Positions 1 through 13,650 of a DNA stretch of 13,650 bases are shown here, one piece after another (position 1 is the first letter of the stretch; each line of letters opens with the position of its first letter). Source of the stretch: a virus (taxonomy: Duplodnaviria; Heunggongvirae; Uroviricota; Caudoviricetes); the IMG/VR virus record IMGVR_UViG_3300029490_000278, positions 1 to 13,650 of that record, one strand, 5' to 3'. A model generated the notes under the pieces. The model ran no database searches, was not told where the DNA came from, and worked only from the letters and a program-made list of their open reading frames with translations. Both the position numbers and the translations under genes were made by a program.

Positions 1-1053
1 TTATTTCCCCACCAGCTCGTTTATCTCTTTCACTGTCTGGTTAAACCGCTCTGACTCAAGCTCAACACCTAAGGCCCGACGCCCCAGCGCCATTGCTGCT
101 TTTATTGTGGAACCGGATCCCATAAAAAAATCAGCAACCAGATCACCAGGTCGACTACTGGCATTGATTATTTGCCTGAGCATATCCGCCGGTTTCTCAC
201 ACGGATGTTTACCCGGGTAGAACTGAACGGGTTTATGCATCCAGACATCGGTATAAGGCACGGAGACTGATACGGAGAAATAGCGCCGGAGAGATTTAAA
301 CTCATCCAGCAATTCAGAATATTTGCGATTCAGTGAATCATAAGACGCCGCCAGCTGGTGGTGTGGTTGTTCCAGTTGTTGTTCCTGAAACTTCTCTGCC
401 GCTATACGGGAAAACAGTGCCTGTAACTTCCGATAGTCAGCCTCATTCGGCAACTGCCACTGACTGGCACCAAACCAGTGGGAAACCATATTTTTCTTAC
501 CTGTGGCTTCGGCAATTTGTTTTGCCGTTATACCCAGTTCGGCACGAGCATCCCTGAAATACGATATCAGCGGTGCCATTATGTGCTGTTTGAGTTCCCT
601 TTCTTTTGCTGCATAGCCGTCACTTTTGCCGCGATATGGCCCCTGGTAATGTTCAGCAAACAGAACGCGCTCTGTGGCAGGAAAATATGCGCGCAGACTT
701 TCTTTATTACACCCATTCCAACGTCCGGACGGCTTCGCCCAGATGATATGGTTAAGCACGTTGAAACGTTCACGCATCATGATCTCAATATCAGATGCCA
801 GGCGATGCCCACAGAACAGGTAAAGGCTTCCGGCAGGTTTTAACACCCGCCAGAACTGGGCCAGACAGTGGTCCAGCCACTTAAGGTAATCTTCGTCCCC
901 TTTCCACTGATTGTCCCAGCCGTTGGGTTTCACCTTGAAGTACGGCGGATCGGTAACAATCAGGTCAATGGAATCATCAGGCAGGGACTGAATAAAATGC
1001 AGGCAATCAGCGTTGATTAAATCAACACTGTTTATTTTTACAGTATTTTTCAT
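1..1053 (-). CDS. DNA methyltransferase, amino-MTase type (N6-adenine or N4-cytosine), beta-class motif order
   Basis: 350-aa ORF. Motif IV DPPY near the N-terminus (LIVTDPPYF) and motif I FxGxG near the C-terminus (DFFMGSGST). ATG at 1051-1053; stop TAA is complement of bases 1-3, so the gene is complete within the window. No clear SD. Confidence 0.85.
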   Translation of the reverse strand: MKNTVKINSVDLINADCLHFIQSLPDDSIDLIVTDPPYFKVKPNGWDNQWKGDEDYLKWLDHCLAQFWRVLKPAGSLYLFCGHRLASDIEIMMRERFNVLNHIIWAKPSGRWNGCNKESLRAYFPATERVLFAEHYQGPYRGKSDGYAAKERELKQHIMAPLISYFRDARAELGITAKQIAEATGKKNMVSHWFGASQWQLPNEADYRKLQALFSRIAAEKFQEQQLEQPHHQLAASYDSLNRKYSELLDEFKSLRRYFSVSVSVPYTDVWMHKPVQFYPGKHPCEKPADMLRQIINASSRPGDLVADFFMGSGSTIKAAMALGRRALGVELESERFNQTVKEINELVGK

Positions 1054-1203
1054 GGATCAGTAAGCGTAACTCTGGTAGGCTCACTCTGCTTTTGCGCTAA
1101 AGCAGTGGGCCGTGGTTCGCTTGTGACCAGTAAGCATGAGCGAATGGCTGGCAGGTGCTACCAACACCCACCAGCCGCCCATTTTCACAGCAGGAAACCG
1201 CCA

Positions 1204-1407
1204 TTACTGGCAGCGTCTGAATTTATTCCCGTACCCGCCGTTATCCTTCGCCAGACCCGCCAGAACTAACTGAGTCAGTATTAACTGGCACCGGGCTTCG
1301 CTTACTCCGGTAGTTCTCGTCATCATGCGTGGCGTTACCCACTTGTCAGCAGGTAAGAAATGAAGGACTGCGGCGGCGGTTTCTGTCATATCTTGCTGTT
1401 TTAGCAT
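1204..1407 (-). CDS. Small helical protein (67 aa), possible winged-helix DNA-binding regulator
   Basis: SD AAGGGA about 8 nt upstream of the ATG at 1407; the in-frame upstream ATG at 1431 has no SD. Sequence resembles small phage regulators, but no diagnostic motif. Confidence 0.45.
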   Translation of the reverse strand: MLKQQDMTETAAAVLHFLPADKWVTPRMMTRTTGVSEARCQLILTQLVLAGLAKDNGGYGNKFRRCQ

Positions 1408-1452
1408 GTCTTTTTCCCTTCTGGTTAACATGACATACCAATAACTCTTGTC

Positions 1453-1479
1453 TAAAAAGCCAGCAAGATAAAAAGCCAG
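1453..1479. repeat. Two 11-bp direct repeats TAAAAAGCCAG (1453-1463 and 1469-1479)
   Basis: Exact repeat read directly from the sequence, 16-bp periodicity, lying between the candidate terminator at 1529-1551 and the start of the small - strand gene. Role unknown. Confidence 0.6.
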
Positions 1480-1528
1480 TATTCACGACCACCAGCGTGT
1501 TTACTGTACTGCACCAGGTTTACAGGTA

Positions 1529-1551
1529 CAAAAAAACCGCTCAGCGGCGGG
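1529..1551 (-). terminator. Candidate intrinsic terminator on the - strand (short GC stem plus 7-U tract)
   Basis: + strand reads caAAAAAAACCGCTCAGCGGCGGG. On the - strand this is a short CCGC/GCGG stem followed by UUUUUUU (1530-1536). The stem is short, so this is weak. Confidence 0.3.
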
Positions 1552-1599
1552 TTTAAGTTGTGTGGCGAAGTAACCACTCTTAACATAATACAATACTTT

Positions 1600-1653
1600 T
1601 TGCGTACGCGTTAATAATTCTATATTATACAAGAAAAACAAGCTGGAAGACAA
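1600..1653. promoter_or_regulatory. AT-rich intergenic region with candidate divergent sigma70 promoters
   Basis: + strand: TTGCGT (1600-1605), 17-nt spacer, TATTAT (1623-1628), upstream of the OLD-like gene. - strand: TTGTCT (complement of 1648-1653), 18-nt spacer, TATAAT (complement of 1624-1629). Pattern match only. Confidence 0.25.
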
Positions 1654-1658
1654 TTAAA

Positions 1659-3437
1659 GTGAGTGAAATCATAAAGTTAAAAGGGCTAATGAATACAAAT
1701 GCTATTGAGCCGTTCATTCGCCATATACGGTTTCCGTATTTTAAAAATCTTGAAGAATATAGCACTATACATTTTCACTATCCTATTACTGCATTAGTTG
1801 GTCAAAATGGAACCAATAAAAGCTCAGTATTACGTGCATTATATGGTTCTCCAAATAATTATTCCTTAGGAAATCTTTGGTTTTCAACTGATCTAGACGA
1901 GATTAAAGATGGTGGTCGTTCTAGATTTATTTATGGATACTATGATTCCGCATCTAAAGATGTTGTTGAAGTAATAAAAACAAGGATTGTAGACAAGGAG
2001 GATCCTGATTTATGGGAAACTTCGAGACCTCTAACTAAAGATGGTATGAAAAAAATACCAACAGATATTATTTCGCCAAATCAGCAAAAATCACGCTGGA
2101 AACAGATAGACAAAATTGTCACATATATTGATTTTAGAGCTTCGATCAGTGCATTCGATAAATTCTTTTATCATTCGGACTTTGATCTTTATCCAAAGAA
2201 AAATCACCTGAGAAAAAGAAGCCATCTTCTTAAAGAGATAATAGATAAAGGCCTAACATCATACAAGCCCTTTAAAGGTAAAAAAGAAAGGTTGTATAAG
2301 AATGAATTACTTTCTCAAGAGAAGGTAGAAATCATCAGCGATATACTTGGTAGACCTTACAAAACAATTAGACTTATTGAGCATGCCTTATTTACAAACA
2401 ATAAGGCTTCAACCGTTATTTTAGAGTCTCATAGTCTCAACTACTCCGAGGCTTTTGCAGGAAGTGGGGAGTTTGCAGTAACTATTCTCGTAAATCAAAT
2501 TGTTAACGCGCCAACAGCATCATTAATTCTTTTAGATGAACCCGAAGTCTCACTTCATCCAGCAGCACAGTTTAAATTGATGTCTTTTCTAAATAAGATT
2601 TGCTTAAAAAACAAACATCAAATTGTTATTTCAACACACTCATCATCTATAGTTAGCCAACTACCTAAGGAAGCCATAAAACTTTTTAATCTTAATTCAA
2701 ACTCAGGGAAAGTTAGTATAGTTGAAAACGTTAGCCCTGAGGAAGCTTTCTTTACGCTTGGAGACCGACTATCAAAAAAAACTATCTTTGTAGAAGATAA
2801 ACTGGCTAAAAAATTCGTTGAGAAGGCTTTAAAATCAGGAGGTCCTGCCCTAGCCAATACATTTGATGTTATATATTGCCCAGCTGGTGCAAGCACATTA
2901 TTAGGTAATATGATTGTCTCATTATTTTTATCAAGAGTTGATAATGCGGTATTTTTATTGGATGGTGATCAGAAGACAAGCCATGATTTCATTACATCAG
3001 CCTTAATACCAAGCAGTGAAGATAATTCTTTAAATGAAAAAATAAAAAATATTCTTGGGTGTGAAATTAAAATACCAACTGATGGGCATGGTGGAACTCC
3101 AAATAAACAGCAGAAGATTCAACTTCAGCGTGATTTCATTGATTTTTCATATAATTATGTAGGGTATTTACCTATCATTAATCCAGAAACTTTTTTGATT
3201 GACAATCTTCCGGCTTTTTACTCCGATATGATTAAAGATTTAAACTTATCAAAACTATCACCAAAATCAATAATTGCAGAAATATGTAAAAGAGACATAG
3301 AAAATAACGTTATAACTTCTGATGATATTTTCGCAACACAAATCAGGATACTAACCCGAATACCTGAGAATCATGTCGCATTTTCTGAAACGAGAGAAAT
3401 GCTGAAATTTTTCCTTGAACATGGTAAGATAAGATAA
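1659..3437 (+). CDS. OLD-family nuclease: N-terminal ABC-type ATPase plus C-terminal TOPRIM domain
   Basis: 592-aa ORF. Walker A GQNGTNKS (res 48-55), signature-like AGSGE, Walker B LILLDEPEVSLHP (D293/E294), H-loop STHS, TOPRIM glutamate in TIFVEDK (E379) and DxD in FLLDGDQ (D434/D436). Start is GTG at 1659; an in-frame ATG at 1689 is the alternative. Visibly AT-rich relative to flanks. Confidence 0.8.
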   Translation: MSEIIKLKGLMNTNAIEPFIRHIRFPYFKNLEEYSTIHFHYPITALVGQNGTNKSSVLRALYGSPNNYSLGNLWFSTDLDEIKDGGRSRFIYGYYDSASKDVVEVIKTRIVDKEDPDLWETSRPLTKDGMKKIPTDIISPNQQKSRWKQIDKIVTYIDFRASISAFDKFFYHSDFDLYPKKNHLRKRSHLLKEIIDKGLTSYKPFKGKKERLYKNELLSQEKVEIISDILGRPYKTIRLIEHALFTNNKASTVILESHSLNYSEAFAGSGEFAVTILVNQIVNAPTASLILLDEPEVSLHPAAQFKLMSFLNKICLKNKHQIVISTHSSSIVSQLPKEAIKLFNLNSNSGKVSIVENVSPEEAFFTLGDRLSKKTIFVEDKLAKKFVEKALKSGGPALANTFDVIYCPAGASTLLGNMIVSLFLSRVDNAVFLLDGDQKTSHDFITSALIPSSEDNSLNEKIKNILGCEIKIPTDGHGGTPNKQQKIQLQRDFIDFSYNYVGYLPIINPETFLIDNLPAFYSDMIKDLNLSKLSPKSIIAEICKRDIENNVITSDDIFATQIRILTRIPENHVAFSETREMLKFFLEHGKIR

Positions 3438-3463
3438 ATTTTAGATTATTATAGAGACAGATC

Positions 3464-4498
3464 ATGAAGAAAAAAATCAAAGTTTTTGACTTCTTTTCAG
3501 GATGCGGGGGAACAAGCAAAGGCCTTAAAGAGGCTGGGTGCGAAATTTTCTTCGGTCTCGATTATGATTATGACTCTGGTCAAACCTTTCAGGCAAATAA
3601 TCCTGATGCTATATTTTTTAATGAGGATATACGCTCCGTTAAGTTAAATGATTTATTTCAGCTTGTAAAAAAAGCGAAGCAAGACTCACATGTTTTGTTT
3701 TGTGGTTGTGCTCCATGTCAACCGTTCTCAAGGCAAAATAAAAATAAAAGCAAAGAAGATCCTCGAAGAGGATTATTAAACGAATTTGGTCGTTTTATCG
3801 AGTACTATTGTCCTGATTATGTACTGATAGAAAATGTTCCAGGATTACAAAAAGTTGATATTAACGATGGACCATTGCATGATTTTATAACTCTTCTGAA
3901 AAAGAAAGATTATAATTTAGCTTATGGTGTGATTCCCGCTTTATGGTACGGAGTGCCTCAAACCAGAGAGCGTTTTGTTCTTATGGCCTCACTTCATTCC
4001 CCAATCCATCTACCAGAGCGCACGCATAATGGCGAAGATATCCCATTTGCGACGGTAAGAGATTGGATCGGAAATATACCACCAATTGAGGCAGGTGAAT
4101 CACATCCTACATTACGAGATCATGTTAGTGCAAAACTCTCTGCTTTAAATCTTAAAAGAATTAAAGCAACGCCAGAGGGTAAAGGTCGAGAGTTTTGGCC
4201 TAAAGAGTTGTTACTTGAATGTCATAAAAACCATACAGGTCACAGCGATGTATATGGCCGATTAGCATGGGATAAACCTGCTAGTGGATTAACTACAAGA
4301 TGCATTAGTTACTCTAACGGAAGATTTGGCCATCCTGAGCAACACCGGGCAATTTCTGTTCGCGAGGCTGCACTGCTACAAACATTTCCATTGGATTATA
4401 TATTCATCGGTTCAATGCTTTCTAAAGCTAAACAAATTGGTAATGCAGTCCCACCTAAAATGGCGGAGTCTATAGGGCATGTTTTTATGAATATTTAG
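3464..4498 (+). CDS. DNA (cytosine-5)-methyltransferase, Dcm-type
   Basis: 344-aa ORF with the full C5-MTase motif set: I FDFFSGCGG, IV GCAPCQPFS (catalytic Cys), VI IENVPGL, VIII QTRERF, X QIGNAVPP. Starts 26 nt after the OLD-like stop on the same strand; AT-rich. Confidence 0.9.
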   Translation: MKKKIKVFDFFSGCGGTSKGLKEAGCEIFFGLDYDYDSGQTFQANNPDAIFFNEDIRSVKLNDLFQLVKKAKQDSHVLFCGCAPCQPFSRQNKNKSKEDPRRGLLNEFGRFIEYYCPDYVLIENVPGLQKVDINDGPLHDFITLLKKKDYNLAYGVIPALWYGVPQTRERFVLMASLHSPIHLPERTHNGEDIPFATVRDWIGNIPPIEAGESHPTLRDHVSAKLSALNLKRIKATPEGKGREFWPKELLLECHKNHTGHSDVYGRLAWDKPASGLTTRCISYSNGRFGHPEQHRAISVREAALLQTFPLDYIFIGSMLSKAKQIGNAVPPKMAESIGHVFMNI

Positions 4499-4518
4499 CT
4501 GGAGCGTAAGCTCCAGCT
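4497..4518. terminator. Perfect 9-bp inverted repeat with GTAA loop between convergent genes
   Basis: AGCTGGAGC-GTAA-GCTCCAGCT, read directly. It overlaps the C5-MTase stop (4496-4498) and ends 3 nt before the stop of the - strand Q-like gene (4522). No U-tract on either side. Confidence 0.4.
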
Positions 4519-4521
4519 TAC

Positions 4522-4863
4522 CTATAACATTGACATTACTCCCTCAACAAATCCCAAGGCGGATTGCAAATCCTTCCGGATAGTCCCGTCCGAACATTTC
4601 CGCTTCTTTGCAATTGTGCGGAGTGAAATACCTATAACAAAGTGAACAATGAGCAGCTCAAACTCATCTGGTTTATACTTTCGTAACCGAGCCACACAAC
4701 TGTCTACCATAATACCTTCGTCATCATCACACTGAATCCGGGACTTTTTGCCATGAGGTAAAAGCCCCTTAAAGCCAGCGGCTACCTGTTGCCAATCCAC
4801 ACCACTGTTTTCTGCCGCAGCCCATGCCCCCCAGCGGTCCAAAACTTCATACATATCACGCAT
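4522..4863 (-). CDS. Small Q-like late-gene antiterminator (tentative)
   Basis: 113 aa from the ATG at 4863, with SD GGAGAAA 5-6 nt upstream. Family assignment is from recalled similarity to small Q-type antiterminators and from position after the nin-like genes; no motif is diagnostic. Confidence 0.4.
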   Translation of the reverse strand: MRDMYEVLDRWGAWAAAENSGVDWQQVAAGFKGLLPHGKKSRIQCDDDEGIMVDSCVARLRKYKPDEFELLIVHFVIGISLRTIAKKRKCSDGTIRKDLQSALGFVEGVMSML

Positions 4864-4880
4864 CAACTTTCTCCACAAAA

Positions 4881-5876
4881 TCAGGCCAGCACGCCTATTG
4901 CCAGCGCACGATCGATAAAACGAAATATCAGCTCCAACTGGGAGCCATACTTCTCTTCAAATGCCACGGTATCCGCATGTAGTTCGTCGTGATGCTTTCT
5001 GCACAAAGGCAACACAAAGAGGTCATGCGCTTTTGTACCCATTCCCCCCTGACCGTGGCCTATCAGGTGGTGGGGATCATCAGCAGGCTTTCCACAACAT
5101 GCACACGGCTGTGTCTTAACCCAGCGCGTGTACTTTTCATTAACCCAGCGGCGACGTTTTGGGCGTAACATAAAAGACTCCGGCGACTTCGGATCCACTT
5201 TCAGCGCCAGCACTTTTTTCGCTTTATCCTGGATGATGCTGGTGGCAGGAACCGAAGGCACAAGGTCACTTTCCCGGGTAACAGACGGCACAACAGGCTT
5301 CGGTAATCTAAGTGCCTTACGGGCTGCACTTTCCGGTAAGGCATCCGCCAGGTCATTACGAATCAGCCACCAGCACAGTTCCGGCATTGTCACAACGTGA
5401 CTGTCATCAAAACCGAGATCCCGACGCACAACAGACAACACCCAGCGGGCACAGTTATCCGTTGCCATTGATTCCAGCCGTTCTGTGAACTGATCGCGCA
5501 GCTGGTTATCGCAGTGCCAGCACAGACGGATTGCGCCCGGAGCGTGTCGCATTGTGGTCATGTTCTCGCTGTGCCAGTCGGAATGAGGCCACTGGCAGCC
5601 TTTTTCACGAAGTAACCAGCTTTCAAGACATTCCACGCCACCAGCACGACGGATCACTGCCTCATTGCGGAACACGCCCCGAACGGCAGGATCATCCGCC
5701 AGCGGTTGTGATGCCGCGGGAACGGCACCACTGGCGAAAGATGAATAACGCTCCGGCTCAGGCTCCAGCAGGACACGCCCCTGCATAAATAGGGGCATCA
5801 GCTCTGAACCTGGTCTGAACAATACGATCCCCATACGCGGGGCAATTTCAGGGGTCAGTAGTGCTCTCACGGTCAC
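4881..5876 (-). CDS. Phage nin-region protein with C-terminal Cys/His (HNH-like or zinc-binding) motif, DUF968-like (tentative)
   Basis: 331-aa ORF. C-terminus carries CACCGKPADDPHHLIGHG...LPLCRKHHDELH. The GTG at 5876 overlaps the upstream TGA stop (GTGA), suggesting translational coupling; exact start is ambiguous. Confidence 0.6.
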   Translation of the reverse strand: MTVRALLTPEIAPRMGIVLFRPGSELMPLFMQGRVLLEPEPERYSSFASGAVPAASQPLADDPAVRGVFRNEAVIRRAGGVECLESWLLREKGCQWPHSDWHSENMTTMRHAPGAIRLCWHCDNQLRDQFTERLESMATDNCARWVLSVVRRDLGFDDSHVVTMPELCWWLIRNDLADALPESAARKALRLPKPVVPSVTRESDLVPSVPATSIIQDKAKKVLALKVDPKSPESFMLRPKRRRWVNEKYTRWVKTQPCACCGKPADDPHHLIGHGQGGMGTKAHDLFVLPLCRKHHDELHADTVAFEEKYGSQLELIFRFIDRALAIGVLA

Positions 5877-5877
5877 C

Positions 5878-6687
5878 TCAATGTACGGTATCGAGCAGCT
5901 TTAACAGCTCAGGGAATCGGGATTCGAAGAAATGCGGCTGCGTCTCGCGCGGATTTGCGGGACTGGTGATGTTCTTGCCGAACATGCAGCCTTTCGCTGT
6001 CAGTGACCAGAATTTTTTGATGTTGTTAATCGCGGTACGGCTGTATCGTTCGCGCTGCTCGACGATCCCCAGCTTCACCATCTGGTGATATGCCTGATTA
6101 GCTGTCAGGCGGATACCATACTGCTTCAGCAATGCACTCAGTGACAGCGTGGGGCGGCTTGAGCCATCAGGCGCGTCAGCAGGAGCATCAATGGCATAGC
6201 GCGGTGCCAGATTCGGTAAGCCAACAGCCTCCTGGAGTTTCTGACAGGCACCAAGCACTGAAGAGTTAGACAGGTTTAATTCCCGGCGCATAAAGTCCAG
6301 CAGAATCACACCAGCCTGCATCTTGTCAGCAGCCTGTCCGGATAATTTTTCCGGTGCGCTGGTTACCATGTCGAAAGTACGGATCACCTTCAGATGGAAT
6401 GACGGGCTGATCCACATTGCATAGGCATACACCAGTTCTTTGCAGACATACGTCCCCTGGTTATTTCCGCCATTAATGACGCTAACTGGTTGATTTTGTT
6501 CCAGAGGCGGAATTCCACCCTCGGTGAAAAGTTGTTCAATCAATTCACAGGTTTGCTTATTGGAGAGCCAGTATTTCGGGCGGTTTTTTTGTTCTCCCCC
6601 GGCTGCCCTGTGCAGATCGTTCAGGCTGTAACGCCCATAAGCATCACGACGAACTTCAATACCATCAATGACCATCAGATTATTCAT
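5878..6687 (-). CDS. KilA-N domain protein (antirepressor-like)
   Basis: 269 aa from the ATG at 6687, with SD GAGGAG about 8 nt upstream. N-terminal region (MVIDGIEVRRDAYGRYSLNDLHRAAG...YWLSNKQTCELIEQL...GTYVCKELVYAYAMWISPSFHLKVIRTFD) fits the KilA-N fold pattern. Confidence 0.65.
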   Translation of the reverse strand: MNNLMVIDGIEVRRDAYGRYSLNDLHRAAGGEQKNRPKYWLSNKQTCELIEQLFTEGGIPPLEQNQPVSVINGGNNQGTYVCKELVYAYAMWISPSFHLKVIRTFDMVTSAPEKLSGQAADKMQAGVILLDFMRRELNLSNSSVLGACQKLQEAVGLPNLAPRYAIDAPADAPDGSSRPTLSLSALLKQYGIRLTANQAYHQMVKLGIVEQRERYSRTAINNIKKFWSLTAKGCMFGKNITSPANPRETQPHFFESRFPELLKLLDTVH

Positions 6688-6706
6688 ACTTCGTTTCTCC
6701 TCTTGA

Positions 6707-6952
6707 TCAGGCGGCTGCACCCGCCGGTTTCTCGTACTTACTGATAGTGATCTCGACCTTCCCTTCCGGGATAACCGGTCCCCACTCCACCAACATTCTT
6801 TTCACTTGGCTGTCGTCTTCCCACACACCCGCGTGGGTCAGGGCGTCAAACAGCGCCTTGTTATAGTTGTCCAGATCGCGGATCCGGTTACGGGTCTTCG
6901 CGTTTTTCGGTGTACGTGCTGACGGACGGTGATAAGCGCAGGGAAAGCTCAT
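6707..6952 (-). CDS. rusA: RusA-like Holliday-junction resolvase, conserved C-terminal core with short or atypical N-terminus
   Basis: C-terminal 55 residues (RIRDLDNYNKALFDALTHAGVWEDDSQV...GKVEITISKYEK) match the RusA catalytic region, including the DLDN and DD acidic residues. The ORF can be extended to an ATG at 7066 (119 aa), but that N-terminus overlaps the O-like gene in another frame and lacks the usual RusA N-terminal motif. Confidence 0.5.
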   Translation of the reverse strand: MSFPCAYHRPSARTPKNAKTRNRIRDLDNYNKALFDALTHAGVWEDDSQVKRMLVEWGPVIPEGKVEITISKYEKPAGAAA

Positions 6953-7769
6953 CCCATTTTTCCCGCAACTTCGACGGGCTGAGCACGTTACGGCACCAGA
7001 ACGGATCGCGGCTGACGCGGCTGTACATCTCGCAGATTTGTTTGTGAGTACGACCATCCTGTACACACATCAGGCGAATTTCGTTTGCCCAGGCTGTCCA
7101 GTTCGGTTCTTTGGGACGAACCACCTCGCCGTCACATTCGGCGGCTTGCTCGTACAGGGCGATGATTTTTTTCCAGAGCCACTGTGCGCAGGTCAAATCA
7201 TCCTGCGTTCCCCACTGGCGCTTTTTAGGGCTGAATACAACCGCATCAGGATGGCGAGTTAAAAAATCCTGTTCATCCGTCTGCGTGTCCGGTTGCGAAG
7301 CGTCCGGACGAGAAGGTTTTTTATCTGACGGATCATGTTTTGATTTTACTGACGGATCCCCGCCAGATTCTGACGGGTGAAAACCCGCTTTTTTGCCAGA
7401 TTTCGACGCATCAAATTTTGACGGGTCAGATTTTGATGCGTCAGATTTTGACGGGTCAGAATCTGACAGTTGAGAAAATGCCGCTGCCTGAAGCTTCGCA
7501 ACGTTAAGCTGATAAACATTCGACGCATTGCGGTTACCCTGGCGACGCGCCTTACGCGTTAACCAGCCTTCTGCTTCCAGCCGTGCGATAGCCGTTCTGA
7601 CGGTACTCATCCCCGCGCCAATCTGGCGGGCAATGGTTTCAATTGATGGCCAGCACACACCTTCGTCATTACTGAAATCAGCCAAGCGGGCCATAATTGC
7701 CACGCTGGATAATTTCATGCCTGACGCTGCGCAACCATCCCATACATAGCCGGTTAATTTAGTGCTCAT
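6888..7769 (-). CDS. Replication initiator, O-like (N-terminal winged-helix DNA-binding domain, repetitive acidic/Ser-rich linker)
   Basis: 293-aa ORF, ATG at 7769 with SD AGAGGT 6 nt upstream. N-terminal HTH-like region (SVAIMARLADFSNDEGVCWPSIETIARQIGAGMSTVRTAIARLEAEGWL). Linker (SDSDPSKSDASKSDPSKFDASKSG) is encoded by tandem 15-bp repeats. Sits in the O position of a lambdoid early-right operon. Confidence 0.6.
   Translation of the reverse strand: MSTKLTGYVWDGCAASGMKLSSVAIMARLADFSNDEGVCWPSIETIARQIGAGMSTVRTAIARLEAEGWLTRKARRQGNRNASNVYQLNVAKLQAAAFSQLSDSDPSKSDASKSDPSKFDASKSGKKAGFHPSESGGDPSVKSKHDPSDKKPSRPDASQPDTQTDEQDFLTRHPDAVVFSPKKRQWGTQDDLTCAQWLWKKIIALYEQAAECDGEVVRPKEPNWTAWANEIRLMCVQDGRTHKQICEMYSRVSRDPFWCRNVLSPSKLREKWDELSLRLSPSVSTYTEKREDP
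7399..7458. repeat. Four tandem 15-bp iteron-like repeats (consensus GATTTTGACGGGTCA) inside the O-like gene; candidate origin
   Basis: Units at 7399-7413, 7414-7428, 7429-7443 and 7444-7458, with degenerate copies at 7321-7335, 7366-7380 and 7459-7469. Each unit has internal dyad symmetry (TGAC..GTCA). Confidence 0.6.
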
Positions 7770-7778
7770 GACCGACCT

Positions 7779-8117
7779 CTATTTCCCTGAATTTACGACG
7801 AAACTGTTCGAGCGGGCTGAAGCACTCATGCTCATAGCCTTCACGGAGGTAGATAACCCGTTGTGTTTCCGGCTCCCAACGAATGACTCTGACGGGCACT
7901 CCGTAGTGATCTTTGAACCAGCGGTTAACTTGTCGCAAAGGACTGCCTCCTTCTGCCGGTTGAAATCCCCCACAGCCCACTCTGCAAAGCTGTGGGTTAC
8001 AATTTCCCTGTCACCTGGTACATTCACTGCATAGCAATACTCCACCTTCGCTTTTCCACCCGGTACAGGAAGCGCAATCAGTTGCGAGCGACGGTAGTGT
8101 GTTGTTAAACTGTTCAT
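7779..8117 (-). CDS. Hypothetical early protein (112 aa), possibly frameshifted
   Basis: ATG at 8117 overlaps the upstream stop (ATGA). A -1-frame ORF (7759-7980) continues from a C5/G5 homopolymer at 7967-7971 and would end just before the O-like start. Confidence 0.45.
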
Positions 8118-8677
8118 GCGTTAGTTTCTCCACAGTCACGACACGCCACGGCGCCCGGAGCTGCACACTCGCGGGCGTCATTACTTTCTGAAATGCAAAA
8201 AATTTTGTAGACCAGTGCTGCATGCTCCTGCAGCTTCGAAATTGAGAGGTACAACTCGTCGTTAATTGCTGTCTTCTCATGCGGTTCCACTACACCGTCT
8301 TCAATTGCTGAACGAATCTGTTTTGAATAACTGCCGATCTGTTCAATGACCTCCAGCAGGCGTTGGTTGATATCGGCGTTGTCCACATCCTCGACGTCAG
8401 GAAGAGACACAAAGACGCCATTTGCAGACTGCGCCACAGCATCAGCAATGAAGTGAGTGCCACCAGCACGCTGTAAAACCATTGCCCATCCCAGCGGGAA
8501 AATCTGATCGCCATCTGCACGAAGGCGGTTGAATAAAGCGTTTTCTGTTACATCGAGCCAGTCAGCCGCTTCAGCGTAACCACCCGGCAACGCCGCGATA
8601 GTTTTTCTGACAGCTTTCACGTACCACTCAGGCTGTTTTTCTATTTTCCAGTGATGCTTACCCACGATTAGCCTCAT
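8114..8677 (-). CDS. Early regulatory protein in the cII position (function tentative)
   Basis: 187-aa ORF directly downstream of the cro-like gene, ATG at 8677. Assignment is by synteny with lambdoid early-right operons; no diagnostic motif. Confidence 0.5.
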
Positions 8678-8708
8678 CGTTCTGTGGTTAAAAATTGAAA
8701 GTGTTCTG

Positions 8709-8909
8709 CTAATCTTTCGGATAGATATCCGGTCTTAAGTCAGATTTCGTAATTGCACCTGACGTGCATTGCTCAAGTTTTTTAGCCAGCACAAAACTGG
8801 CTTTTTTATAGCCATTGAAAACCAGCCGTAAGTAGCCAGGTGTTGAGCCAACTTTTCCGGCCAACTCGCCCTGCTGTTCTTTGGTTAAAGAGTCCCAATA
8901 CGCTTTCAT
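8709..8909 (-). CDS. Cro-like small HTH repressor
   Basis: 66 aa from the ATG at 8909, with SD GGAGGT 9 nt upstream. HTH-like sequence (LTKEQQGELAGKVGSTPGYLRLVFNG), divergent from the CI-like gene. The longer listed ORF (to 9212) runs antisense through the repressor gene and is rejected. Confidence 0.7.
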   Translation of the reverse strand: MKAYWDSLTKEQQGELAGKVGSTPGYLRLVFNGYKKASFVLAKKLEQCTSGAITKSDLRPDIYPKD

Positions 8910-8915
8910 ACAATA

Positions 8916-8982
8916 TGTACCTCCGGTGTACATATTACATGATTGAAATGAACCTTCAAGATACTTGTACCTTAACGGTACA
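8916..8982. promoter_or_regulatory. Immunity switch region: divergent promoters plus two TGTAC-N7-GTACA operator palindromes
   Basis: Operators at 8916-8932 (TGTAC ctccggt GTACA) and 8966-8982 (TGTAC cttaacg GTACA). - strand promoter: TTGAAG (complement of 8954-8959), 16-nt spacer, TAATAT (complement of 8932-8937). + strand candidate: TTGTAC (8965-8970), 17-nt spacer, TTTAAT (8988-8993). Confidence 0.55.
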
Positions 8983-8999
8983 AGGGTTTTAATTTCGTT

Positions 9000-9674
9000 A
9001 TGAAAACAATCCATGACATCCGGCGGTCTAACGCCAGAAAACTGAGAGATGGTGTTGGCGGGAATTCTTCCTTTGCCACTATGATTGATCGCGAGCCAAC
9101 CCAGACCAGCAGGTTTATGGGAGATGGTGCTACTAAAAATATCGGTGACAGCATGGCACGACACATCGAAAAATGTTTCGACCTGCCTGTCGGATGGCTC
9201 GATCAAGAACACCAGACAACGAACATCACAAAAAAACCTGATGTTTCAATCACTAATAAACAAATCACATTAGTCCCTGTCATATCATGGGTACAGGCCG
9301 GAGCATGGAAAGAAGTTGGATATTCTGAGGTTGATTTGAGCACAGCAGAAACGTATCCCTGCCCTGTACCCTGTGGGGAAATGACTTATATCTTGCGGGT
9401 GATAGGTGATTCAATGATTGATGAGTACCGCCCGGGAGACATGATTTTTGTCGATCCTGAAGTACCTGCCTGCCACGGTGACGACGTTATTGCATTGATG
9501 CACGATACAGGTGAAACCACCTTCAAAAGGTTGATAGAAGATGGGACACAGCGTTATCTCAAAGCGTTAAACCCAAACTGGCCTGAGCCTTACATTAAGA
9601 TCAACGGTAATTGCTCTATAATTGGTACAGTGATTTTCTCAGGAAAACCAAGAAGATACAAAATCAAAGCCTAA
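9000..9674 (+). CDS. CI-like phage repressor with LexA-type S24 peptidase domain
   Basis: 224-aa ORF with an N-terminal XRE-type HTH and a C-terminal S24 domain (Ser in VIGDSM, Lys in TFKRL). No SD before the ATG at 9000. Confidence 0.85.
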   Translation: MKTIHDIRRSNARKLRDGVGGNSSFATMIDREPTQTSRFMGDGATKNIGDSMARHIEKCFDLPVGWLDQEHQTTNITKKPDVSITNKQITLVPVISWVQAGAWKEVGYSEVDLSTAETYPCPVPCGEMTYILRVIGDSMIDEYRPGDMIFVDPEVPACHGDDVIALMHDTGETTFKRLIEDGTQRYLKALNPNWPEPYIKINGNCSIIGTVIFSGKPRRYKIKA

Positions 9675-9686
9675 TCAATGTTTATG

Positions 9687-9709
9687 AACCTGCTTCGGCA
9701 GGTTTTTTT
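9687..9709 (+). terminator. Rho-independent terminator downstream of the repressor gene
   Basis: 7-bp stem AACCTGC/GCAGGTT with a UUCG tetraloop, followed by a 7-T run (9703-9709), 13 nt after the repressor stop. Confidence 0.8.
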
Positions 9710-9713
9710 ATAC

Positions 9714-9758
9714 TTGACAATGTACCTTTGAGATACATAATGTACCCAAGCGAAACAA
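9714..9758 (+). promoter_or_regulatory. pL-like promoter with embedded operator
   Basis: -35 TTGACA (9714-9719), 16-nt spacer, -10 CATAAT (9736-9741). Operator-like TGTAC-N7-aTACA at 9721-9737 sits between the -35 and -10; a weaker copy (TGTAC at 9742-9746) follows. Confidence 0.55.
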
Positions 9759-9908
9759 CGAACAGGCAGGACGCCCACGAAGTAGCCGCCTGGGGCATAT
9801 GAAGTCCAGGATGATTCGTTAGCAACAAAAAAGCGCCCTACAGGACGCTTAGCTCTTTAACAATCTGGTCCCCATCAACAAGTAACTGATAACTTGAGGA
9901 GATGTGAA

Positions 9909-10115
9909 ATGCACAAAACAGAACCCAAAATCGTCGCGCCTGGCTACACAGATGAGGAAATTTATGAGTGGATGACAAAGAAGCTGGCAGCTATAAACCA
10001 GCTTCGTGAAGTGCTGTCTTATCGACAGGAAACAATAGACTCCTTAAAAAAACTGGATCAGGAAATCACGGTTTTATCACAGGATGTTACTTTAGATATT
10101 GTGCAGACAAATTAG
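9909..10115 (+). CDS. Small hypothetical early protein (68 aa, predicted helical)
   Basis: ATG at 9909 with SD GAGGAG 7 nt upstream; first gene after the pL-like promoter. No recognisable domain. Confidence 0.4.
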   Translation: MHKTEPKIVAPGYTDEEIYEWMTKKLAAINQLREVLSYRQETIDSLKKLDQEITVLSQDVTLDIVQTN

Positions 10116-10521
10116 GATCCCATTCATTTTCGTCAAAATCATCAAAATGATGAATTTGTGATCTCCAGTCTCGATAATCTAAAAATTTCTGGGCGGTTAC
10201 GCTTATTTTATCAAGTGTGAGTTCATCCTGAATTGAAAGAAGAAGTTCATCAAATTTCATCTCATTAATCTGTTTTGGCATCCAGTGATGCTTCATCAGA
10301 ATAAGGTGAACCAGAGCCTTTTTCCCATTCAACTGATTATAGGGAGTGCCGAATTTCTTCCGGTGCTCATGTAAGACAAGGTCCAAAAGAGTAAGTAATG
10401 TTGCCCTTGATTCAACTTTGCTTATTTCGACTGATGACACTACCCCACTGATTTCAATGCCCCGATACTTTCCAACATTTTCACAGTGGGATTTGTACAG
10501 CGTATAGATATTACCGGACAT
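10087..10521 (-). CDS. AT-rich hypothetical protein (144 aa) on the opposite strand of the early-left operon; candidate moron
   Basis: ATG at 10521 with SD AAGGAA about 6 nt upstream. Visibly lower GC than its neighbours. 3' end overlaps the convergent 9909-10115 gene by 29 nt. No motif recognised. Confidence 0.5.
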   Translation of the reverse strand: MSGNIYTLYKSHCENVGKYRGIEISGVVSSVEISKVESRATLLTLLDLVLHEHRKKFGTPYNQLNGKKALVHLILMKHHWMPKQINEMKFDELLLSIQDELTLDKISVTAQKFLDYRDWRSQIHHFDDFDENEWDPNLSAQYLK

Positions 10522-10807
10522 TTCTTTTCCTTTTGCGTTGTTGGGGATAACCAGATTAACCGAATCCTTGTTGTTGGGGAATAACTAGGTCCACCTCGCC
10601 TGATGTGGCTAAAAGCAGGCACATAACAGCTAAGTATTTTCAACCAGAGAGAATCCTTAGCGTTGTGGTGAATGCGGCTCAGCGCACGCGGGTTAAGGTT
10701 GAGGCTGACAGTCGACCTTCTGTGGATACCCACCCGCCTGGTGTGCAACCTTCGCCAGGCACCGGGAGGCACCCGGCACCACAACTTTATGCTGTGTGTA
10801 GTCTTGG

Positions 10808-10852
10808 CGGTACCAGCTTGTACCCTTGCTTCCGGCTGGTACCGTCCTTTTT
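10808..10852 (+). terminator. Candidate intrinsic terminator or structured RNA 3' end
   Basis: Perfect 10-bp stem CGGTACCAGC (10808-10817) / GCTGGTACCG (10835-10844) with a 17-nt loop, followed by TCC then TTTTT (10848-10852). Confidence 0.4.
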
Positions 10853-10941
10853 ACAAAACAGAGAAGAGCATCACCGGACGACGGGCTCATAACCCAATCC
10901 ATCCGGGCGGCTGCCACCGCAGGTGTTCTTCTCTGTTTTGT
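10853..10941. repeat. Perfect 15-bp inverted repeat enclosing a 59-nt GC-rich segment
   Basis: ACAAAACAGAGAAGA (10853-10867) and its exact reverse complement TCTTCTCTGTTTTGT (10927-10941). An 11-bp direct repeat ATCACCGGACG also occurs at 10870-10880 and 10996-11006. Confidence 0.6.
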
Positions 10942-11065
10942 GGAGAAACTAACCGCCCCTACGGGGGCATTTATGGAAATGTAATTGACTCAATAATCAC
11001 CGGACGGTGAGGGCTTCCTTTTACCGGAATTCAGCGCGGTGCAGCGCATATACGTGGAGAACAAA

Positions 11066-11602
11066 ATGTCATTTATTAAAACTTTTTCCGGGAAGCATTT
11101 TTATTATGACAGGATAAATAAAGACGACATCGTTATTAACGATATCGCGGTTTCCCTTTCAAATATCTGTCGCTTTGCAGGACATCTTTCACACTTCTAC
11201 AGTGTCGCCCAACATGCGGTGCTTTGCAGCCAGCTGGTGCCGCAGGAATTTGCTTTTGAAGCTTTAATGCATGATGCAACAGAAGCATATTGCCAGGACA
11301 TCCCCGCACCACTGAAACGACTTCTTCCTGACTATAAACGGATGGAAGAAAAAATAGACGCCGTAATCCGTGAGAAATACGGGTTACCTCCTGTTATGAG
11401 CACGCCAGTGAAATATGCCGATCTCATTATGCTGGCAACCGAACGCCGCGATCTCGGGCTTGATGATGGCTCTTTCTGGCCTGTGCTGGAAGGTATCCCG
11501 GCAACAGAGATGTTCAACGTGATTCCACTGGCTCCAGGCCATGCCTACGGGATGTTTATGGAACGCTTTAACGAATTATCGGAGTTACGCAAATGCGCAT
11601 GA
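11066..11602 (+). CDS. HD-domain phosphohydrolase (5'-deoxynucleotidase-like)
   Basis: 178 aa from the ATG at 11066, with SD GGAGA 5 nt upstream. HD-superfamily motifs: H in FYSVAQHAV, HD in ALMHDATEAY, D in DLIMLATERRD. Stop overlaps the next start (ATGCGCATGA). Confidence 0.8.
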   Translation: MSFIKTFSGKHFYYDRINKDDIVINDIAVSLSNICRFAGHLSHFYSVAQHAVLCSQLVPQEFAFEALMHDATEAYCQDIPAPLKRLLPDYKRMEEKIDAVIREKYGLPPVMSTPVKYADLIMLATERRDLGLDDGSFWPVLEGIPATEMFNVIPLAPGHAYGMFMERFNELSELRKCA

Positions 11603-11955
11603 ATGTTTTCGAAATGGAAGGGTTTCTTCGTGGGAGATGTGTACCGCGAGATCTGAAAGTGAATGAAACGGATGCTGAATACCTGGTGCGTAAATTCGAT
11701 GCGCTTGAAGCTAAATGTGCAGCACAGGAAAACAAAGTAATACCAGTGTCAACTGAACTGCCACCAGCAAATGAAAGTGTTTTGTTATTCGATGCTAACG
11801 GAGAAGGCTGGCTAATTGGCTGGCGTTCTCTCTGGTACACCTGGGGACAAAAAGAAACCGGAGAATGGCAGTGGACATTTCAGGTCGGGGACCTTGAAAA
11901 CGTCAATATCACTCACTGGGCAGTAATGCCAAAAGCACCGGAGGCTGGAGCATAA
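11593..11955 (+). CDS. DUF551-like phage protein (tentative)
   Basis: 120-aa ORF translationally coupled on both sides (shares TAATG with the next gene). Domain call is from recalled sequence pattern only. Confidence 0.5.
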   Translation: MRMNVFEMEGFLRGRCVPRDLKVNETDAEYLVRKFDALEAKCAAQENKVIPVSTELPPANESVLLFDANGEGWLIGWRSLWYTWGQKETGEWQWTFQVGDLENVNITHWAVMPKAPEAGA

Positions 11956-12260
11956 TGACCACTTTTACCGACAAAGAACTGATTAAAGAAATTAAAGAGC
12001 GTATCAGCAGCCTTGACGTGCGAGACGATATTGAGCGCCGTGCTTATGAAATCGCACTCCTATCTCTGGAAGTAGAACCAGATGAACGCGAAGCTTATGA
12101 ATTATTCATGGAAAAGCGTTTCGGTGACTTAGTAGATCGTCGGAGAGCAAAAAACGGCGATAACGAATACATGGCATGGGATATGACTCTCGGTTGGATC
12201 GTCTGGCAGCAACGAGCTGGTATCCATTTTTCAACAATGTCACAACAAGAGGTGAAATAA
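11955..12260 (+). CDS. Hypothetical phage protein (101 aa)
   Basis: Start ATG overlaps the upstream stop (TAATG) and its stop overlaps the excisionase start (TAATG), so it is part of a tightly coupled operon. Confidence 0.45.
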   Translation: MTTFTDKELIKEIKERISSLDVRDDIERRAYEIALLSLEVEPDEREAYELFMEKRFGDLVDRRRAKNGDNEYMAWDMTLGWIVWQQRAGIHFSTMSQQEVK

Positions 12261-12610
12261 TGGAGCCATACAGCCTCACACTCGATGAGGCCTGTCATTT
12301 TCTCAAGATATCCAGACCGACTGCCATTAACTGGATACGCACAGGGCGTCTTCAGGCAACACGCAAAGATCCCACTAAGAATAAATCTCCTTACCTCACA
12401 ACACGACAAGCCTGCATTGCGGCTCTTCAGTCTCCGCTGCATACTGTCCAGGTGAGCGCGGGTGATGGCATAACAGAGGAAAGAAAATGTCACTCTTCCG
12501 CAGAGGTGAAATATGGTACGCCAGTTTCACATTGCCGAACGGTAAAAGATTTAAACAGTCTCTTGGAACAAAGGACAAAAGGCAGGCGACAGAACTCCAT
12601 GACAAGCTAA
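12260..12610 (+). CDS. xis: Excisionase-family HTH DNA-binding protein
   Basis: HTH region [26 protein letters not shown] immediately upstream of the integrase. Start taken as the ATG at 12260; the ORF track starts the frame at 12176. The frame runs to 12610, overlapping int by 124 nt. Confidence 0.55.
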
Positions 12611-13650
12611 AGGCTGAAGCATGGCGGGTCAGCAAACTTGGTGAAATACCTGATATAACGTTCGAGGAAGCTTGTGTCAGGTGGCTTGAAGAGAAAGCAC
12701 ATAAAAAATCACTGGACGATGACAAAAGCCGGATCGGATTCTGGCTTCAACATTTCGCAGGAATGCAACTAAGAGACATTACTGAATCAAAAATTTATTC
12801 AGCAATGCAGAAAATGACGAACCGGCGTCATGAGGAAAACTGGAAACTCAGGGCAGAAGCATGCAGAAAAAAAGGGAAACCTGTTCCAGAATACACGCCA
12901 AAACCAGCGTCCGTTGCAACGAAGGCTACGCATCTTTCATTTATAAAGGCCCTACTAAGAGCCGCAGAGCGTGAATGGAAAATGCTGGATAAGGCACCAA
13001 TTATTAAAGTGCCTCAACCAAAGAATAAACGGATCCGCTGGCTGGAGCCCCATGAAGCACAAAGGCTGATTGATGAATGTCCGGAGCCATTAAAGTCTGT
13101 TGTTGAATTTGCACTGGCAACAGGCTTAAGACGCTCGAACATCATCAACCTTGAATGGCAACAAATAGATATGCAGCGCCGGGTGGCATGGATAAACCCG
13201 GAAGAGAGTAAATCAAACCGCGCAATTGGCGTTGCGCTGAATGATACTGCATGTCGCGTATTGAAAAAACAAATCGGGAATCATCACCGTTGGGTATTTG
13301 TGTACAAGGAAAGCTGTACCAAACCAGACGGAACGAAAGCGCCAACAGTAAGGAAGATGCGGTATGACGCAAACACAGCCTGGAAAGCGGCGCTGAGACG
13401 GGCTGGTATTGATGATTTCAGATTTCACGACTTGAGACACACCTGGGCAAGTTGGCTGGTTCAAGCCGGAGTCCCGTTGTCAGTGTTACAGGAAATGGGA
13501 GGCTGGGAGTCTATCGAAATGGTTCGTCGATATGCTCACCTTGCACCTAATCACCTTACCGAACACGCACGGCAAATAGACTCGATCCTGAACCCATCGG
13601 TCCCAAATTTGTCCCAGTCAAAAAATAAGGAAGGTACTAATGATGTGTAA
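12487..13650 (+). CDS. int: Tyrosine recombinase, phage integrase
   Basis: 387-aa ORF with SD GAGGAA 6 nt upstream. Catalytic signature is present: R in [18 protein letters not shown] box, terminal RRYAHL with the Tyr nucleophile. From memory it resembles the e14 IntE family (unverified). Confidence 0.95.

Follow-up and report, generated by a model that had tools for sequence, protein, structure and literature searches.

The window analysed here, a 13,650-nucleotide stretch of tailed-phage DNA (positions 1 to 13,650 of IMG/VR virus record IMGVR_UViG_3300029490_000278), carries on its minus strand a gene for a predicted replication initiator, and the part of that gene which encodes the linker between the two domains of the protein contains a tandem array of 15-bp repeats. 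Sequence comparison makes it likely that positions 7320-7469 of the window are the cis-acting replication origin of a lambdoid prophage of the SfII/SfIV/CPS-53 type, lying in the linker-coding part of its own initiator gene, and the 15-bp repeats are very probably the iterons of a lambda-style origin embedded in this way. An origin within the initiator gene had been proposed in a preliminary description of the window, and the proposal is supported by the presence of the array in 31 of 31 relatives, by its conservation at the level of DNA, by the co-variation of the repeats with a predicted recognition helix of the initiator, and by a position resembling that of the lambda and P22 origins. This is an ordinary kind of element, of which the version carried by a widespread prophage has not previously been described.

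The probable iteron array

Repeat finding and a matrix scan identified four head-to-tail 15-bp units at 7401-7460 on the minus strand. Read on the coding strand, these lie at 7446-7460, 7431-7445 and 7416-7430, with a degenerate unit at 7401-7415, and they share the consensus TCTGACnCnTCAAAA, with the core dyad TGACG-CGTCA (the hyphen marking its centre). A position matrix derived from 150 units, taken from relatives only, scores them at 24.0, 24.9, 24.0 and 18.8 bits respectively. Tandem Repeats Finder describes the interval 7397-7460 either as 4.3 copies of period 15 (81% matches, score 86) or as 2.1 copies of period 30 (88% matches, score 100). The preliminary description had placed four tandem units at 7399-7458, and they are present there on the plus strand at 7399-7413 (GATTTCGACGCATCA), 7414-7428 (AATTTTGACGGGTCA), 7429-7443 (GATTTTGATGCGTCA) and 7444-7458 (GATTTTGACGGGTCA, identical to the consensus then given), in agreement with Tandem Repeats Finder. 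It had also credited every unit with TGAC..GTCA dyad symmetry, which is exact in only two of the four, the others reading CGAC..ATCA and TGAT..GTCA. Across the window the motif TGAYGSRTCA matches five times, always within 7326-7458, against an expectation of 0.23, and none of 200 shuffles reaches five; the 15-mer, with up to two mismatches, matches six times against 0.95 expected, again with 0 of 200 shuffles reaching that number. Neither the 15-mer scan nor the matrix scan found a second iteron cluster in the window.

In the coding sense each unit reads TCT GAC nCn TCA AAA, or S-D-x-S-K, and the four units of the minus-strand open reading frame (ORF) translate to SDPSK SDASK SDPSK FDASK, which is the Ser/Asp/Lys linker previously noticed. 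The repeats occupy codons 101-150 of the initiator gene. Two copies of a 13-bp palindrome flank the array on both sides. At its upstream edge (7455-7467) the palindrome is perfect, GTCAGAATCTGAC, and its codons (CTG TCA GAT/GAA TCT GAC) show no synonymous variation in relatives. The copy on the other side, GCCAGATTCTGAC (7362-7374), is overlapped by a lone iteron in inverted orientation (TCTGACGGGTGAAAA, at 7369-7383 on the plus strand, within a feature spanning 7362-7383; 18.8 bits), which also overlaps the first of three conserved boxes considered below; the codons of this region (TTT CAC/GAC CCG TCA GAA TCT) are nearly invariant in 31 relatives. The family matrix detects weaker copies near 7323-7337, and a 38-bp near-palindrome at 7405-7442 is confined to the lineage of the window. 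A promoter scan gave no promoter-like site in the region. A terminator-like 5-bp hairpin at 7374-7387 on the plus strand was set aside as a chance feature, depending as it does on codons that are not conserved in relatives.

The initiator gene and its product

The gene at 6888-7769 (minus strand), recognised as an ORF matching PHROG 391 and SfII_41, has 293 codons in the window and 313 in intact relatives, and encodes in order a winged helix-turn-helix (wHTH) domain, the repeat linker and a lambda-O-like C-terminal domain. By homology the protein is a replication initiator. It matches PHROG 391, 'replication initiation O-like', over residues 1-291 (E 5.6e-130); it has 100% identity over 293 amino acids with the Shigella phage SfII protein SfII_41, an 'O protein' of the SfII/SfIV type; and in SfIV and several Escherichia coli phages the homologues are about 99% identical. 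The phages SfII and SfIV, in which the same gene is present, are viable and inducible (PMC3851460).

The N-terminal wHTH (residues 23-88; 7506-7703, minus strand) is matched by Pfam HTH_36 over residues 23-70, with 43 bits against a cut-off of 25, and by GntR over residues 41-76; PaaX and MarR matches overlap these, and DnaD_N, RP-C and a 'DnaD-like helicase loader' profile match below threshold. An HTH_36 match above the gathering score, together with PHROG 391, places the protein in the HTH_36 ('NDEGVCWPS') group of phage and prophage initiators, as do dyad repeats immediately behind the wHTH codons with GA(A/C/T)CCNT(A/C)A boxes after them. Because Pfam gave no match in it to the Phage_rep_O (PF04492) N-terminal domain, the N-terminal domain is not of the lambda type. 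A search of solved structures returned only weak MarR/PaaX wHTH matches, and NCBIfam no informative match for this protein. The C-terminal domain (residues 182-277; 6939-7226, minus strand) is homologous to the P-binding C-terminal domain of lambda O: in a tblastn search residues 166-277 show 39% identity to the O C-termini of lambda, 933W, H-19B and others (E about 7e-18), and BLASTP against lambda O (7e-26) aligns convincingly in the C-terminal half only. The label of an O-like gene, applied from the outset, is apt for the C-terminal half, with its 39% identity to lambda O, and not for the N-terminal half, which is HTH_36.

An AlphaFold2 (AF2) model made without an alignment, whose mean pLDDT (predicted local distance difference test) of 46.6 confines its use to secondary structure, has helices at residues 43-50 and 54-66, strands at 70-73 and 85-88 (a beta hairpin, 70-88), a helical C-terminal domain, and no secondary structure, at low confidence, at residues 102-162. 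The second of the N-terminal helices (STVRTAIARLEAE; residues 54-66; 7572-7610, minus strand) is the predicted recognition helix, from the register of Pfam GntR and HTH_36 and from AF2.

Conservation of the repeats as DNA

A one-genome-per-species scan, augmented by two phage records, furnished 31 distinct genes from Escherichia, Klebsiella, Enterobacter, Kosakonia, Citrobacter, Buttiauxella, Yersinia, Tatumella, Rosenbergiella, Erwinia, Providencia and other genera. The first 97 residues of their products align without a gap. All 31 of these diverged relatives have an S-D-x-S-K array, of 3-10 units, so that a comparison of repeat number of the kind suggested at the start finds the repeats neither absent nor unconserved. 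A scan of viral contigs with the family alignment yielded only N-termini that are 100% identical, and served to assess copy-number polymorphism, not divergence: the number of units is 4-6 among contigs with an identical N-terminal domain.

In the 31 genes the mean codon diversity at conserved amino acids of the wHTH is 0.40, 0.63 and 0.61 for 2-, 4- and 6-fold codons respectively, so that synonymous sites there are saturated, and falls to 0.0, 0.22 and 0.04 in the blocks of these genes that encode repeats and linker; the medians are 0.58 for the wHTH and 0.0 for the linker (Mann-Whitney p=1.3e-9). Invariant linker codons include Ser TCA (31/31), Val GTA (31/31), Asp GAT (31/31), Phe TTT (30/30) and Glu GAA (28/28). 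Where 11 diverged relatives have the same amino acid as the window, the codon is also the same at a frequency of 0.78-0.96 in the linker and 0.29-0.55 in the domain. The two serine positions of the unit hold different codons, TCT and TCA; lysine is AAA at 200 of 202 linker codons, compared to 293 of 459 elsewhere; and at some positions the residue changes with most bases retained, as in GAC/CAC and TCA/CCA/GCA. The x codon of the unit and the spacer between array and boxes diverge freely among relatives, and the constraint is therefore to be attributed to selection on the motif rather than to recent transfer. Judged by codon usage, the pattern is that of a cis-acting nucleic-acid element overlying a tolerant linker.

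Co-variation of predicted recognition helix and iteron

Inheritance of the repeats is tied to the N-terminal domain of the initiator; the C-terminal domain is swapped and may be of either the lambda-O-C or the Phg_2220_C type. Within the N-terminal domain, the residue that follows the sequence STV in the recognition helix co-varies with the type of iteron. Helices of the STVR or STIR type are accompanied by CTGAYnnnTCR (TCTGAC..TCA) units in 73 of 74 gene versions, representing 29 distinct N-terminal sequences, and STVI helices by TCTGRACGTYCAGA (CTGRAnnTYCR) units in 62 of 63, representing 20; among the gene versions collected there were no crossovers between STVR and STVI. Members of the STVI sister subfamily have a wHTH about 58-67% identical, with the helix RSTVI(T/S/G)(L/A), and units TCTG(A/G)ACGTYCAGAA that are likewise spaced at 15 bp, with the downstream boxes unchanged. 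The sites are 14-bp palindromes that differ at the inner two base pairs of each half, TCTGACG-CGTCAGA for STVR and TCTGAAC-GTTCAGA for STVI.

Nearly all of the more distant relatives (26-40% identity) have other dyad repeats in the corresponding place, about 240-380 nt into the gene. An ERTVQxAIKWL helix is found with CCCCGCAG-N4-TGC repeats, and the ERAVRNAxRWL helix of Pseudomonas with CCCCGGCAC-N4-TGCC repeats. An Actinomycetaceae metagenome-assembled genome (MAG) with the helix DRAVRNQIRSL shares both the helix and the CCGGCAC core (CCGGCAC..TGCC) with the Pseudomonas group; outside the helix its protein is no nearer to the Pseudomonas group than to the ERTVQ group. These distant pairs add several more events to the contrast between STVR and STVI. 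The observations point to binding of the repeats by the encoded protein through its N-terminal domain.

Conserved boxes and an AT-richer patch

The array is followed by three boxes of sequence G/CAYCCGTCA, at 7371-7379, 7350-7358 and 7326-7334. Box 2 (GATCCGTCA; 7350-7358, minus strand) is conserved in relatives as GAT (31/31), CCG (30/31) and TCA (29/29), and box 3 (again GATCCGTCA; 7326-7334, minus strand), which also matches TGAYGSRTCA, as GAT (28/28), CCA/CCG (30) and TCA (26/26). Together with the inverted iteron, these boxes substantiate the degenerate flanking copies of which the preliminary description spoke, and its span of 7321-7469 is the correct extent of a feature made up of array, palindromes and boxes.

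Each of boxes 2 and 3 contains a GATC site, at 7355-7358 and 7331-7334 respectively, and these sites are kept in 28-31 of the 31 relatives. There is no enrichment of GATC across the window, where just these two conserved sites stand out. In intact relatives a gene for an adenine methyltransferase (of Dam, MT-A70 or N6 type) closely follows the initiator gene, at 5431-6084 in the SfII locus L001, and at 3936-4745, 3861-4760, 4014-4589 and 5047-5937 in loci L082, L010, L028 and L088 respectively. It is conceivable that methylation of the origin is linked to its firing.

The boxes extend beyond the close relatives. In distant relatives (loci L036-L081, surveyed over nt ~300-480 of the initiator gene), 3-4 copies of (A/T)GAACC(G/A)T(C/A)A at 11-12-bp spacing come after dyad repeats that are peculiar to each lineage. 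The motif GA[ACT]CCNT[AC]A occurs at least twice at nt 200-520 of the initiator gene in 34 of 46 distinct loci, and its density there, 6.7 per kb against 0.05 per kb elsewhere in the loci, is about 130-fold higher. Its occurrence in all three frames of these genes (59, 33 and 7 times) marks the box as an element of the DNA rather than of the peptide. The three boxes of the window (CAC/GAT CCG TCA), which are identical in the STVR and STVI subfamilies, match the box of the distant relatives, and so does the core of the window 15-mers, GACCCGTCA. The boxes persist across prophages of Enterobacteria, Pseudomonas, Psychrobacter-like bacteria and candidate-phylum MAGs, irrespective of recognition helix, iteron type and C-terminal domain. 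A speculative extension, which we think rather unlikely as it stands, is that the TGA(A/C/T)CC(G/A)TCA box constitutes a second, family-wide origin element, separate from the specificity iterons, at which modules consisting of an initiator without a loader ('initiator-solo') would load host DnaB. The invariant NDEGVCWPS part of the initiator, or alternatively a conserved host factor, would then open the duplex or admit the helicase at the boxes.

Downstream of the iterons, in the direction of transcription, lies an AT-richer patch (7310-7349; 67.5% AT) that is a candidate unwinding region. The least stable 30-mer of the initiator gene by nearest-neighbour energy is 7319-7348, and the maximum AT content of the gene falls in the patch in 26 of 31 relatives (codons 141-154 in the window). 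The stretch had been called moderately AT-rich from the beginning; it is indeed the least stable part of the gene, though its composition is ordinary for the window. The argument from the patch rests on its conserved position more than on its strength, and is weak on composition alone.

Proposed function and alternative explanations

From these features we infer a sequence of binding, unwinding and helicase recruitment. The N-terminal wHTH would bind the dyad 15-bp iterons (TCTGAC-nn-GTCARA) through the recognition helix at residues 54-66, and several bound copies would build a complex resembling the lambda O-some on the array and the spaced boxes. This complex would destabilise the adjoining AT-richer patch, whereupon the lambda-O-like C-terminal domain would bring in the helicase machinery of the host. 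Transcripts started at the early rightward promoter would traverse the origin, as they do in lambda. No DnaA box was found in 7000-7800, and the number of such boxes in the window as a whole is at chance.

Several observations weigh against an origin at this position. The copy of the initiator in the window itself is without its final 20 residues, and no gene for a helicase or helicase loader (P, DnaC or DnaB) is found in the module in the enterobacterial members (loci L001, L082, L083, L010, L028 and L088). A head-to-tail period of 15 bp, with short distances between half-sites, differs from lambda (18-bp sites, 20-24 bp apart) and does not obviously suit a classical helix-turn-helix dimer. 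The AT content of the patch is not unusual, 14% of the 40-mers of the window being equally or more AT-rich. The STVR and STVI sequences are phylogenetically non-independent, and their association with iteron type could rest on a single ancestral split. The region has a strong single-strand folding potential, which some other function could exploit; and a literature search found no published description of an origin or of such a motif for this family of initiators.

The co-variation of helix and repeat favours binding by the initiator and does not speak for initiation specifically, so that the sites might be regulatory only, acting in autoregulation, as a transcription roadblock, in copy-number control by 'handcuffing' or in the exclusion of related phages, with the true origin elsewhere in the prophage. 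Ectopic lambda iterons do inhibit phages with the lambda replication module (PMC3349717), and the weakness of the AT-rich patch would fit such a role. It would leave unexplained why the position and order of the elements are those of the proven lambda and P22 origins, why the AT maximum of the gene adjoins the boxes in most relatives, why the window has no further iteron cluster, and why the sites are within a coding region and not at a promoter; we regard it as improbable. The folding potential raises the question of a structured RNA or single-stranded DNA element, such as translation-slowing hairpins, a nuclease or regulatory site, or a priming hairpin. The folding z-score is -6.0 for 7310-7480, and averages -4.8 in the 31 relatives compared to -0.5 for N-terminal domain controls of the same length; in addition, an invariant 10-bp inverted repeat brackets the array. 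Folding is, however, an automatic by-product of an array of dyad units. RNAalifold, applied to 11 members of the same length, gave no support from covariation, with a term of +1.22 and a compensatory change in only 1 of 34 pairs; the variation in unit number from 3 to 10 means that pairings cannot be conserved; Rfam has no match at gathering thresholds; and the conserved boxes of distant relatives are direct repeats of 11 bp that have nothing to pair with. A structured element as the explanation is accordingly very improbable in our estimation. A cruciform or hairpin may nonetheless form at the origin in addition to the probable by-product folding of 7310-7480.

Two further explanations were weighed. 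The peptide of the linker is of low complexity and variable in length, and AF2 assigns it no secondary structure, albeit at low confidence; it might be a flexible Ser/Asp/Lys pentapeptide linker and nothing else, expanded by slippage, which does account for changes in copy number, and owing its codon identity to recent duplication or gene conversion. Against this, synonymous sites are frozen across genera while those of the neighbouring domain are saturated, amino acids change where nucleotides are kept, the two serines of the unit hold distinct codons, and distant relatives read the DNA box in three frames. We accord a protein-only role very little credence. Constraint from a second gene that overlaps this one, in a different frame or on the opposite strand, or from a conserved 'boundary' homology that promotes exchange of modules, seems the most remote of the explanations considered. 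In every relative the array can be read through in alternative frames, one antisense frame always having at least 51 codons, and the point at which C-terminal domains are swapped is just downstream of the array. In the window the alternative-frame ORFs through the array are 7340-7507 (plus strand, 55 codons) and 7346-7528 (minus strand, 60 codons). A stop-free unit automatically leaves frames open, however, and these end at different points (51-146 codons); the variable x codon would alter any alternative peptide; the boxes of distant relatives, at 11-bp spacing, cannot share a frame; and the conservation is periodic and motif-shaped, unlike the blanket identity that recent recombination would leave.

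Truncation of the window copy and distribution of the module

Around the initiator the genes run cI / cro / cII-like / orf / initiator / ... / rusA / KilA-N / DUF968 / Q, the order of a lambdoid early right operon. A 112-codon ORF (PHROG 1170; 7779-8117, minus strand) separates the cII-like gene from the initiator; relatives have a small DUF4222 gene at its position. Comparison by blastn with the SfII locus, the SfII annotation and a remnant of RusA together locate a deletion junction at 6889-6890. Relative to SfII, 1,728 bp are gone, comprising the last 20 codons of the initiator gene, a perC-like gene, dam, a gene for a LexA-type DNA-binding domain and the 5' part of rusA, and initiator codon 293 is fused to the middle of rusA, an arrangement seen at 6889-6890 and in 6707-7066. 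None of 5,426 complete E. coli genomes has this junction, and 74 of 78 viral contigs with the same N-terminus encode the 313-residue form. In the window copy the origin is probably intact in cis; the initiator may be impaired, because its gene is truncated at the 3' end.

No partner P gene lies directly downstream of the initiator. In SfII, KpF5, 733R5, pKqq_SB1124_5 and loci L010 and L028 it is followed by PerC-like genes or DNA methylases, and then by rusA or DUF968. Directly after the Pseudomonas homologue (L052) comes a gene for a DnaB-type helicase, which is the P22 arrangement. The enterobacterial members keep the lambda-O-like, P-binding type of C-terminal domain though they are without a helicase or loader gene.

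Of the 5,426 complete E. coli genomes, 1,950 contain the repeat region. In K-12 MG1655 it is kept at 99% identity in the cryptic prophage CPS-53 (L085; 2,476,912-2,477,619), where the repeats are inside an N-terminally incomplete helix-turn-helix pseudogene that adjoins yfdN (PerC-like) and a truncated methyltransferase gene, yfdM. No small autonomous replicon using the module was present in the plasmid collection; the matches in the plasmid database are prophages or phage-sized circles without a typed replicon. In E. coli ECGI0523 and ECDA1023 (L003/L004 and L034/L035) the initiator gene is split near codon 77-79, with residues 1-79 joined to an ORF of 455 residues, unrelated to it, at ~1.19 Mb and residues 77-293 encoded at ~2.44 Mb, which suggests a large rearrangement between prophages.

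Beyond the Q gene the window contains a block of cargo genes (1-4498) that looks like a defence or restriction-modification island. It encodes an N6/N4 DNA methylase (1-1053, minus strand), an ABC-ATPase of OLD/Gabija-like type (1659-3437, plus strand; PADLOC HEC-04 2.9e-34 and ATPase-Toprim_I-B 1.6e-27) and a C5 cytosine methylase (3464-4498, plus strand), and has a very AT-rich stretch near 3017.

A probable origin is hereby assigned to a very common module, found in the serotype-converting Shigella phages SfII and SfIV and fossilised in CPS-53 of K-12. An origin here would not surprise a specialist; the value of the system is in its clean pairs of helix and iteron, which allow a simple specificity code for winged-helix initiators to be tested directly, and in a module without a loader, which is on that account convenient for asking how initiators recruit host DnaB. 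There is also a warning for annotation, in that what would be marked as a 'low-complexity linker' would be a cis-acting DNA element, so that its recoding or truncation would not be neutral.

Comparison with known origins

As in lambda, the candidate origin is in the middle of the initiator gene, and in both cases several dyad sites, in the window putative initiator sites, are succeeded, along the direction of transcription, by an AT-richer tract (PMC7466680). The four iterons of lambda fall within codons 117-145 of O, and its AT-rich tract within codons 145-162, with 73% AT compared to 67.5% in the window. Four tandem units, an inverted copy and three boxes (7326-7467) lie within the initiator coding sequence, where a lambda-type origin has three or more dyad sites. 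The module has an equivalent place behind cro and cII in the early right operon, the C-terminal domain of the initiator shows homology to that of lambda O (39% identity), and the number of iterons varies between relatives, as it does for ori-lambda and the 6-iteron variants of the Shiga toxin (Stx) phages P27 and 933W. The differences are that the N-terminal domain of lambda O is Phage_rep_O and that of the window protein HTH_36; that lambda iterons are 18 bp long and 20-24 bp apart, whereas those of the window are 15 bp, strictly head-to-tail and of unrelated sequence; that in lambda the P gene follows O, and here does not; and that the window, unlike lambda, has extra conserved GAYCCGTCA boxes.

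Lambda, P22 and L are each described as possessing iterons of their own within the initiator gene (bioRxiv 10.1101/2020.10.05.325894), and here too distantly related initiators differ in iteron sequence. In gene 18 of P22 and L the repeats have the same relative position as here, the annotated rep_origin of P22 covering codons 118-166 of 272. Homology to P22 gp18 had been expected and was rejected, there being no detectable sequence similarity (BLASTP E 4.7); the position of the origin alone is analogous. P22 and L also pair their initiator with a DnaB-type helicase (gene 12), which the window module does not have. The G38P protein of SPP1 binds direct repeats in its own gene 38, beside an AT-rich unwinding element (PMC6316719). 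The sub-threshold matches of the window protein to DnaD_N and to the 'DnaD-like helicase loader' profile recall SPP1 G38P/oriL and its DnaD-like organisers; SPP1, however, belongs to another host clade, direct homology to it is not significant, and it supplies both loader (gp39) and helicase (gp40) itself.

Iteron plasmids of the RepA, pi and TrfA type similarly combine a winged-helix initiator with arrays of sites whose specificity co-evolves with the initiator. Plasmid iterons are typically ~17-22 bp long, with ~22-bp phasing, and are located outside the rep gene together with DnaA boxes. The element described here has 15-bp spacing and sites inside the gene, with no DnaA box in 7000-7800, and does not fall among the iteron plasmid replicons. 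It departs from the known origins in its different DNA-binding domain, its contiguous 15-bp iterons, its extra conserved boxes and its lack of a loader.

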